64,000 nucleotides of DNA from Candidatus Solincola quzhuomuensis (GTDB lineage Bacteria; Actinomycetota; Geothermincolia; Geothermincolales; RBG-13-55-18), in NCBI GenBank assembly GCA_015711855.1, contig JACVJF010000001.1:6164-70163 (forward strand), given 5' to 3'. The position numbers were made by a program, and so were the translations under genes. The notes under the pieces are model-generated. The model did not search any database and had not been told where the DNA came from. It was given only the letters and a program-made list of their open reading frames with translations. Positions 34,535 through 64,000 of this stretch are shown here, piece after piece. The stretch's first letter is position 1; every line of letters begins with the position of its first letter.

Positions 34535-34627
<93 letters not shown>

Positions 34628-59563: not shown

Positions 59564-59640
59564 TGGCACGCCCGGAGGGAGTCGAACCCCCAACCTACGG
59601 ATCCGTAGTCCGTCGCTCTATCCAGTTGAGCTACGGGCGC
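59564..59640 (-). tRNA. tRNA-Arg (anticodon ACG), CCA encoded
   Basis: hand-folded: acceptor GCGCCCG, D-arm GCTCAACTGGATAGAGC, anticodon loop CUACGGA, T-loop TTCGACT. Confidence 0.8.
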
Positions 59641-62328: not shown

Positions 62329-63105
62329 ATGACGCGTGGAGAGAAAGGATGGGCGCTGGTCACCGGGGCCTCAAGCGGAATTGGGGAAGCTTTCGCCAGA
62401 AGACTGGCCTTCGAAGGCTATGATCTCATCATCGTAGCCAGGCGGGTAGAACTCCTGGAAAGACTGGCCAGCGAGCTCTGCCGGAGCTGCGGCGTCGCCG
62501 TGGAGGTTGAGCCCGCCGACCTTAGCGTGGAAAGCGATATCGCCAGGGTGGCACAACGCATAGCGGAAGTGGGTCCCCTTGCCGTATTGGTGAACAACGC
62601 CGGTTTCTCCACCGCCGAGAAGTTCATGGAGGCGGACCTGCAGAGTCAGCTGCGAATGATCTACGTGCACAACCTGGCCACCATCTGGCTCACCCACGCC
62701 GCCCTGCGGGGGATGATCTCACATGGCCGGGGTAGCATCATCAACGTTTCCTCCGTTGCCGGCCTTATTCCCGCTCCTTATAACGCCGCATACGACGCCA
62801 CCAAGGCCTTTCTGGTGCTTTTCTCCGAGGGGCTGCACCAGGAATTGCGGGGAACAGGTGTCAGGGTGCAGGCTCTTTGCCCTGGATATACGCACACGGG
62901 CTTTCACGCCTCGATCGGCGTGGAGAGAAAAATCCCCGAGCCTTTCTGGCTGACCCCGGAGGAGGTGGTAGATGCCTCTCTTTCCGCCCTGGAGAGGGGC
63001 GCCGTCGTTTGCGTTCCCGGAAAGAAGCAGCATCTCTTCGTCTCCTTAATGCTGGCCTTGCCCCGTCCCCTGCGGTACCGACTAATCCGCCTGGTTGAAC
63101 GGTGA
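62329..63105 (+). CDS. SDR family short-chain dehydrogenase/reductase
   Basis: 'ALVTGASSGIG', 'NNAG', 'S...YNAAYDATK' catalytic triad. Confidence 0.85.
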   Translation: MTRGEKGWALVTGASSGIGEAFARRLAFEGYDLIIVARRVELLERLASELCRSCGVAVEVEPADLSVESDIARVAQRIAEVGPLAVLVNNAGFSTAEKFMEADLQSQLRMIYVHNLATIWLTHAALRGMISHGRGSIINVSSVAGLIPAPYNAAYDATKAFLVLFSEGLHQELRGTGVRVQALCPGYTHTGFHASIGVERKIPEPFWLTPEEVVDASLSALERGAVVCVPGKKQHLFVSLMLALPRPLRYRLIRLVER

Positions 63106-63212
63106 CTTACGACCCCCCGAACCGGCCTTGACCATTTTCCCGTTTGCCCGATTGGGCGACTCTCCCTGTCGAAGATCGGACTCCCTCCGAACATCGAGGA
63201 TCCGCCTTCTTC

Positions 63213-63300
63213 TGGCGGAAGGGGAGGGATTCGAACCCTCGAGGCGGCTTTCGCCACTCCACCCCGATTCCCCGGTCGGGCGGTTCCCCTCAAAAAGGCC
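63213..63300 (-). repeat. partial/degenerate tandem copy of tRNA-Ser(GGA) 3' half
   Basis: ~48-nt near-identical repeat 'cttctggcggaaggggagggattcgaaccctcgaggcggctttcgcca' at 63206-63254 and 63326-63373; upstream part lacks a matching acceptor 5' strand. Confidence 0.6.
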
Positions 63301-63331
63301 CCAGGCTTTTTGGAGGGCCTGGCGGTTCTTC

Positions 63332-63425
63332 TGGCGGAAGGGGAGGGATTCGAACCCTCGAGGCGGCTTTCGCCACCCACACGATTTCCAGTCGTGCTCC
63401 TTAGGCCAGACTCGGACACCCTTCC
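63332..63425 (-). tRNA. tRNA-Ser (anticodon GGA), CCA encoded
   Basis: hand-folded: acceptor GGAAGGG/CCCTTCC, anticodon stem CACGA/TCGTG loop CUGGAAA, long variable arm, T-loop GGTTCGAATCC. Confidence 0.75.
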
Positions 63426-63567
63426 GCGGACTCCATTCCGTGTCTCCTGCGATCCAGGCGACAGAAATAATTATAGATACGGGCTCCGCCGCTTTCCAGC
63501 GGAATAGGCATTTCCTGCCGGATCCGGCTCCTTGCGGCGCGGCGGTTTTTCGCAGTCCTCGCCGGCC

Positions 63568-63999
63568 TTACTCCTTGGCGACCTCCTTTTCTCGCTCCTC
63601 CAGGATGAGTTCCGCCGCCCTTTTCGCTGCCCTCCCCACCACCTCTGAGCAGTGCTCCAACATTCCCGACCGAAAGGCTTCCTTGAGTTCTCCGGGATCG
63701 TAAAGGTCGTAGGTCCTTCCCATCAGCTTCCGCTGGATGTCGTGACACCGGCAGCTCCCGTAGCTCTCCACGAAGAAATCGTGCAGCTCCTTGCACAGGA
63801 GGTAGGACCGCATGGGCTTCATCACGTCTCGGTGGTCCTTCCGCTCCCTGCCGAACAACAGGCCGATGACCATACACCCCCCGGTCAAAGCCCCGCAGGA
63901 GCCGTCCCCCGTCAAGCCTATGCCGTCGGCAAGCCCGCTGGCCGCCTTGAACACCCCCTCCTCCTCCATGTTTAACGCATCGAGGAGTCCGGCCACCAC
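63568..63999 (-). CDS. C_GCAxxG_C_C family putative redox-active protein (possibly 5'-truncated by window edge)
   Basis: 'GDGSCGALTGGCMVIGL' and downstream 'GSCRCHD...CSE' conserved Cys pattern. Confidence 0.55.
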   Translation of the reverse strand: MVAGLLDALNMEEEGVFKAASGLADGIGLTGDGSCGALTGGCMVIGLLFGRERKDHRDVMKPMRSYLLCKELHDFFVESYGSCRCHDIQRKLMGRTYDLYDPGELKEAFRSGMLEHCSEVVGRAAKRAAELILEEREKEVAKE

Positions 64000-64000
64000 G

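Follow-up and report, generated by a model that had tools for sequence, protein, structure and literature searches.

The region downstream of the tRNA-Ser(GGA) gene of Candidatus Solincola quzhuomuensis, studied here in a stretch of 64,000 nt (the window), contains a partial copy of that gene, termed psi. Psi is probably a noncoding remnant of tRNA-Ser(GGA) that has been inherited vertically and partly re-homogenised by exchange with the neighbouring gene. It would have had a single birth, in an ancestor shared by a clade of uncultured Actinomycetota, either from a tRNA fragment displaced by an integrase, the body of the element being deleted later, or from a tandem duplication whose 5' part disappeared, and it would thereafter have been passed on together with the tRNA-Ser gene. 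A tRNA-gene fragment beside its parent is a kind of sequence already known; psi is notable for its age, for the absence of an island and for its fixation across a clade.

The parent is a functional tRNA gene. It lies where it had originally been predicted, at 63332..63425 on the minus strand, and ARAGORN and Rfam RF00005 (51.4 bits, E 1.3e-9) agree on it; its sequence folds into a cloverleaf with a minimum free energy of -42.2 kcal/mol (z -2.6). ARAGORN finds three tRNAs in the window, namely this one, Ser(CGA) at 34536 and Arg(ACG) at 59564-59640, the last being the tRNA-Arg that had been noted at 59.6 kb. The TGGAAA/TATAAT site 5' of the tRNA-Ser gene is its putative promoter on consensus grounds. 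Motifs at this position, CTGGAAAG...TCTATAAT, are kept in four relatives (L001, L012, L010 and L021), while the remaining leader differs.

A direct repeat, exact over 51 nt, joins the gene to psi, with 119 nt from start to start and 68 nt between the copies. The original prediction had described a near-perfect repeat of 48 nt at a distance of about 70 nt; the repeat is real and so is the short distance, but it is longer than claimed and perfect. Of the block, 45 nt belong to the tRNA (variable arm, T arm, acceptor 3' strand, G73 and CCA) and 6 nt, GAAGAA, to the start of its trailer, and GTGGCGAAAGCCGCCTCGAGGGTTCGAATCCCTCCCCTTCCGCCAGAAGAA is the stretch of it that a cognate attP would carry. 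For a 25-nt piece of the block, 100 shuffles of the window give an expectation of 0 chance matches. The other two tRNAs of the window were found to have no such copies downstream. The features of the locus are collected in Table 1.

Table 1. Features of the tRNA-Ser(GGA) locus in the window, and the form of psi in related lineages
Feature	Source	Coordinates	Strand	Description	Basis
SDR-family oxidoreductase gene	window	62329..63105	+	convergent; stop codon 101 nt from psi	Pfam adh_short 3e-47
Repeat copy B	window	63207..63257	-	exact 51-nt copy: tRNA 3' portion and trailer	
psi-tRNA-Ser	window	63207..63291	-	partial copy lacking the D arm	alignment to tRNA and to psi of relatives
Spacer hairpin	window	63286..63317	.	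CCCTCCAAAAAGCC-TGG-GGCCTTTTTGAGGGG, between tRNA and psi	fold
Repeat copy A	window	63326..63376	-	inside tRNA, plus 6-nt trailer GAAGAA	repeat search, 100% identity
tRNA-Ser(GGA)	window	63332..63425	-	94 nt, long variable arm, encoded CCA	ARAGORN
Predicted promoter for tRNA-Ser	window	63470..63498	-	TGGAAA, 17 nt, TATAAT	consensus scan, 10/12 matches
C_GCAxxG_C_C family gene	window	63568..64000	-	upstream of tRNA-Ser, runs off window	Pfam PF09719 4e-22
psi	L001, L012, L013, L017			anticodon-like segment and exact 19-nt variable arm; T arm deleted	
psi	L021, L022			starts 10 nt past CCA, stops after TCGAGGG	
psi	L010/L016 (one assembly)			variant variable arm GGCGGCGAAGGCCGCC and intact T arm adjoining SDR stop codon	
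psi	L011			two identical 110-nt units of spacer and psi; T loop CAAGCAT; stems and acceptor strand identical to tRNA	
psi (probable)	L014 (SDR 85%)			starts exactly 30 nt inside common 3' end, at psi-to-SDR distance	

Read in the direction of the tRNA, psi begins with a possible remnant of the acceptor 5' strand, GAGGGG (63286-63291), continues with a segment resembling an anticodon arm and ends with the exact 51-nt block; the D arm is absent. The anticodon-arm-like segment, CCCGA-CCGGGGAA-TCGGG (63263-63280), matches the tRNA anticodon arm CACGA-CUGGAAA-UCGUG with one loop base extra, giving a loop of 8 nt, and two additional nucleotides stand ahead of the variable arm relative to the tRNA. 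Homology to the tRNA thus opens in diverged form at the 5' strand of the anticodon stem, and exact identity starts at the foot of the variable arm; the core may be written, for example, as CGACYGGNNNATC-N10-GGCGAAAGCCGCC. The lower copy had been described as degenerate in its 5' part and incapable of an acceptor stem. This part is indeed diverged, but the homology runs on through 63263-63280, and GAGGGG could pair over 6 bp with the acceptor 3' strand; the same six bases also form the 3' arm of the spacer hairpin. At the other end of psi is a small hairpin, CCGCC-AGAAGAA-GGCGG (63202-63218, minus strand), the 3' arm of which lies just beyond the repeat. In the tRNA copy, CCGCC occurs again at the site where the hairpin of psi has GGCGG.

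The spacer between tRNA and psi is not alignable between lineages. In the window its hairpin is terminator-like on both strands according to a terminator scan (63301-63322 on the plus strand, 63315-63299 on the minus strand). The plus-strand form faces the convergent SDR gene and sits between psi and the tRNA, so the antisense of psi would lie in the 3' UTR of the SDR gene. A terminator-like hairpin is strong in L001 (10858-10893) and in L012, with the form GCGCTCGG...CCGAGCGC followed by TTTTTT; L010 and L021 have terminator-like sites at different positions.

Psi is not a second tRNA gene, since no tRNA is called on it by ARAGORN in default or relaxed mode, nor by RF00005 even at E<=10. The earlier view that the lower copy is not a complete, distinct tRNA is thereby upheld, and psi in all likelihood has no function as a tRNA. 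The psi region folds with the energy of its shuffles (z 0.06 to 0.4). Psi as a tRNA without a D arm was also considered and rejected: the mitochondrial and low-threshold modes of ARAGORN return inconsistent, spurious calls on either strand, and covariation lends no support. Complete pairs of tRNA-Ser(GGA) genes do occur elsewhere (in L047 and L051), but a simple tandem pair of functional tRNA-Ser genes has next to no credibility at this locus, where one tRNA is called, psi has neither a D arm nor, in its 8-nt loop, a serine anticodon context, and the psi of several relatives has no T arm.

Relatives were located with the convergent SDR gene as the anchor of synteny. L001, an Actinomycetota MAG whose SDR is 78% identical, came from one genome-collection scan, L010-L013 from one metagenome scan with the variable arm and T arm as query, and L014, L016, L017 and L021-L023 from contigs of SDR homologues; about six independent lineages are sampled in all. 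Psi is found at every sampled relative locus that covers the region downstream of tRNA-Ser, in at least five lineages besides that of the window, and lies 10-70 nt downstream of the tRNA. The tRNA-Ser itself is identical over its 94 nt in six of the six loci with the whole gene (the window and five relatives). Psi is more variable (Table 1), and the T arm and/or the acceptor strand are missing from it in three lineages (L016; L012/L001/L017; L021). The L014 contig probably carries psi too, because it starts k-1 = 30 nt inside the repeat at the distance that separates psi from the SDR gene. No further psi lineages came from SDR homologues at 62-73% identity, nor from L015 and L032, as in these the tRNA-Ser is not adjacent to the SDR gene.

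Several features of individual relatives may be recorded here. Both 110-nt units of L011 (5592-5811) have the T loop changed from TTCGAAT to CAAGCAT, five of its seven bases being altered, beside a T stem, variable arm and acceptor strand that are still identical to those of the tRNA. L010 (3600-3705) and L016 (5740-5867), which belong to the same assembly, overlap for about 90 nt and then disagree after CCCTCCC. The repeat evidently breaks short-read assemblies, as with this pair and with the Logan contig L014 (2650-2679), which starts exactly k-1 = 30 nt short of where the shared 3' segment ends. L024 (39-1634), from a lineage whose SDR is 71% identical, has a Prim-Pol gene a few kb away from the C_GCAxxG and SDR genes, and the tRNA-Ser does not adjoin the SDR gene; this neighbourhood may be a mobile element or a rearrangement.

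Such breakage is the one point in favour of psi being an assembly artefact of a metagenome-assembled contig. The same architecture recurs, however, in independent NCBI, JGI, ENA and Logan assemblies, each with its own spacers, and an artefact is highly improbable.

All the psi differ from the tRNA in the same characters, namely the 8-nt loop, the two extra nucleotides that precede the variable arm, and a GCC where the 5' strand of the tRNA stem has GCA. These shared derived indels and changes point to one ancestral copy and, judged from the sequences, to a single origin of psi. That origin appears to be old. The SDR orthologues adjoining psi in the relatives are 75-85% identical to that of the window, and the C_GCAxxG_C_C protein is 80-86% identical, and at the same position, in L001, L011 and L012 (tblastn). 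At fourfold sites of the SDR gene, in a comparison that leaves out the L021 rows, the window is only 40-44% identical to the L001 and L016 groups, and these two groups are 59% identical to each other. The spacers between tRNA and psi are, for most lineage pairs, no more similar than shuffles. With fourfold sites near saturation and spacers at the level of shuffles, psi must be older than a deep split and the event that gave rise to it an old one.

The surroundings of psi have been stable as well. The order FKBP, GT4, tRNA-Arg, hypothetical, Fer4, SDR / psi, tRNA-Ser, C_GCAxxG_C_C is kept in L001, L012 and L021, and the order from FKBP to C_GCAxxG_C_C is partly kept in L011 and L016. The original prediction had taken the tRNA-Ser junction and the tRNA-Arg together as marking a recombination-prone boundary; the conservation across lineages of this order, tRNA-Arg included, speaks against it. 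Psi also stays with the tRNA when the neighbours differ, as in L011, which has a methyltransferase in place of the SDR gene, and in L010, which has a ROK-like gene upstream.

Duplicated tRNA 3' ends raise the question of integrases. Williams is said to have defined, in 2002, sublocations within tDNA at which integrases cross over. Crossover takes place in the anticodon loop, or in the T loop/junction. Islander recognises an island by an end fragment of the same tRNA in the same orientation, the 3' fragment lying downstream, with an integrase between the two and an interval of 2-200 kb (PMC4383910; PMC9897764). Psi resembles such island tDNA fragments in being a 3' fragment in the same orientation, downstream, that extends past CCA and has homology, diverged at first, from the anticodon stem-loop onwards. 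It differs from them in having neither island nor integrase and in an interval of 119 nt as against 2-200 kb. Island fragments are also polymorphic, whereas psi is fixed and old across its clade.

The original prediction read the duplication as att-like, the trace of a collapsed or excised element. What holds of this is that psi is a nonfunctional 3' fragment lying downstream on the same strand, as an integrase-displaced fragment does; a recent scar is unsupported. A recent integrase insertion at tRNA-Ser in this genome, followed by imprecise excision or collapse that left attL and attR nearly adjacent, would agree with the 3' fragment signature of Islander in orientation, in downstream position and in reaching slightly beyond the tRNA 3' end (PMC4383910). 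The homology of psi in its diverged form, moreover, opens at the anticodon stem, which is among the known sublocations of crossover, and in other bacteria there are proviruses whose end is a tRNA-Ser(GGA) gene sharing this T arm and acceptor. It is nonetheless very unlikely. Psi was already present before the divergence of lineages now saturated at neutral sites, and the same psi with the same indels is present in every sampled relative that keeps the locus, which speaks against a collapsed or excised element particular to this genome. Neither an occupied site with an island nor an empty site with the tRNA but no psi occurs among the sampled relatives keeping the locus; the island expected at the junction in related genomes is not there, psi being present and both flanks syntenic. 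The 68-nt interval between the repeat copies contains neither an ORF nor an integrase. An integrase had been sought beyond the window as well: the far flank past 64 kb was judged from L001, the closest long contig and a syntenic one, and no integrase lies there within 10 kb beyond tRNA-Ser, the genes present being of the housekeeping kind and including C_GCAxxG, a GH31 hydrolase, a permease and oxidoreductases.

Viral sequences give a similar answer. No IMG/VR contig (0) has an attP-like fragment that combines the variable arm with the T arm. The variable arm alone has eight viral matches, which are unrelated hairpins or coding sequence, and the T arm with acceptor matches 23 viral contigs, in each of which the match is a tRNA-Ser gene, whole or cut off by the contig end, from an unrelated phage or provirus; the hosts are unrelated and of low GC. 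Many predicted proviruses in IMG/VR (L035-L057, sample 3300045988) end at a 91-nt tRNA-Ser(GGA) of low-GC hosts that has the same T arm and acceptor. Two of these contigs, L047 (12921-13304) and L051 (111-497), contain two complete tRNA-Ser(GGA) genes each, 293-296 nt apart. The hairpin GGAGGTGGCGAAAGCCGCCTCC, which has the same core as the tRNA-Ser variable arm, stands free in intergenic positions in the unrelated phage contigs L062 (231-248) and L064 (2757-2774).

A recent att scar or a recombination-prone boundary is therefore not supported. The 3' fragment configuration and the start of homology at the anticodon stem do leave room for an origin of the integrase type in the distant past. 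Such an ancient origin of psi, with later loss of the element, is possible, neither more nor less so than a tandem duplication whose 5' part has gone.

Descent from one ancient copy, the reading preferred here, has also to account for the perfect repeat seen in the window. In this lineage the stretch that opens with the variable arm and closes 6 nt after CCA would have been re-homogenised by gene conversion or unequal exchange, producing an exact block of 51 nt, sharply bordered. The window unit is identical over no more than 51 of its 119 nt and the remainder is unalignable; the block takes in 6 nt of a lineage-specific trailer, and in other lineages identity to the tRNA extends over 19, 23 or about 45 nt. 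A block with a lineage-specific trailer, sharp borders and such varying extents elsewhere argues for later homogenisation rather than a fresh duplication of 119 nt, and the 51-nt block is not the original block of identity. The two identical 110-nt units of L011, which the same kind of exchange would have produced, indicate that unequal exchange operates at the locus. In L016, in L012/L001/L017 and in L021 the 3' side of psi would instead have eroded, with loss of the T arm and/or the acceptor strand. One observation speaks against conversion: in L001/L012/L017 identity to the tRNA is down to 19 nt, a short length for conversion to keep up.

Inheritance as a remnant is not free of difficulties either. 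Between deep lineages, identity is 57-83% over the 23 nt of the anticodon-like part of psi and 83-100% over the variable arm, values that exceed the 40-60% seen at fourfold sites. Short direct repeats as close as these (51 nt, 119 nt apart) are prone to loss by repeat-mediated deletion. Conservation of the core, together with retention in spite of the deletion to be expected, could mean selection for some function.

It is accordingly worth weighing whether psi, or its core of the anticodon-like segment and the variable-arm GNRA hairpin, is a selected functional element. The candidate roles are a tRNA-like RNA, made in one transcript with tRNA-Ser, whose structure would serve processing, protection of the 3' end or termination; a decoy for a protein that binds tRNA-Ser, for instance SerRS, for which the long variable arm is the recognition element; and a complementary 'anti-tRNA' stretch within the 3' UTR of the convergent gene. 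Selection of this general kind is unlikely, even though psi is retained in all sampled lineages keeping the locus, remaining with the tRNA as neighbours change, and its core is conserved above the neutral yardstick of the fourfold sites. The structural evidence cuts both ways. Across lineages the variable-arm helix is 98% paired and nearly invariant, with one change from G-U to G-C in L016, and a 6-bp acceptor-like pairing exists in the window and in L011. The anticodon-like helix, on the other hand, is paired in 57% of cells (unpaired in 43%) and the acceptor-like helix in 52%, no helix of psi has covariation above the slid-partner control, and the fold is no more stable than shuffles. As T arm and/or acceptor strand are gone in three lineages, any function of psi cannot be tRNA-like. 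Finally, most of the conserved bases are those identical to the adjoining tRNA, which conversion would also be expected to preserve.

A more specific proposal can be framed from the sequences, namely that psi is under selection in this uncultured anaerobic clade of Actinomycetota for its anticodon-like segment and variable-arm hairpin, these acting as a tRNA mimic transcribed along with the gene, as a decoy for a protein that recognises variable arms, or as a module for 3' processing or termination. This is doubtful, and is offered as conjecture. If it were true, that function would have left its trace in the retention of psi despite easy deletion and in a conservation above neutral, and a poorly known lineage of actinobacteria would possess, in psi, a small element derived from a tRNA and used in regulation or processing.

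By analogy, the closest counterpart of psi, taken as an inherited remnant, is the set of tRNA 3'-end repeats distal to tyrT/tyrV in E. coli. E. coli K-12 has three units of 178 bp downstream of tyrV, the last of which overlaps the 3' end of the tRNA; within 1.6 kb there are six occurrences of the 19-nt 3' end of tRNA-Tyr, and the repeats carry the annotated rttR and tpr. The sRNA RttR is the product of one such unit, according to a passage of PMC3318445 that cites Bosl and Kersten 1991. In both systems copies of the 3' terminus of a tRNA gene trail that gene on the same strand in the same intergenic region, and L011 has its two units of 110 nt in tandem. The two are nevertheless unrelated in sequence, occur in different phyla, and the window has no match to Rfam rtT. 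The copied part is longer in psi, from the anticodon arm to the 3' end as opposed to 19 nt, and, with only 51 of 119 nt repeated, the window does not hold a clean tandem array. In E. coli strain SK1144 (L033, NZ_AP018784.2 2698163-2699473) tyrT and tyrV lie only 34 nt apart, and genes for fatty-acid and sterol desaturases, directly downstream, occupy the place of the 178-bp rtT repeats of K-12.

A second comparison is with sX4, an expressed sRNA of Xanthomonas (PMC3300014). The consensus of sX4 has a stretch like a tRNA T arm, acceptor and CCA followed by a hairpin, and psi with its 3' flank (63180-63268, minus strand) aligns to it, scoring 31.9 bits against RF02223, where the gathering threshold is 70. 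At this score psi is not a member of RF02223, and its match rests on generic T-arm sequence of the tRNA-Ser type. The tRNA-like stretch in the consensus suggests that sX4 may itself come from a fragment of a tRNA. The same generic sequence explains all the sub-threshold Rfam hits that were considered and set aside (sX4, Plastid-psbI-rps4, mascRNA and beta-tmRNA).

It is routine to take a partial copy of a tRNA gene as the sign of an integrated mobile element and to delimit islands by such copies. Some practical lessons follow for this habit. Relatives should be inspected before a tRNA fragment is named an att scar; repeats of tRNA ends can be expected to break short-read assemblies, as in two other assemblies here; and a copy such as psi should not be annotated as a tRNA. 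Psi shows that a tRNA fragment can be old, free of any island and fixed across a whole clade, and hence that the presence of such a fragment is not by itself a sign of recent recombination.
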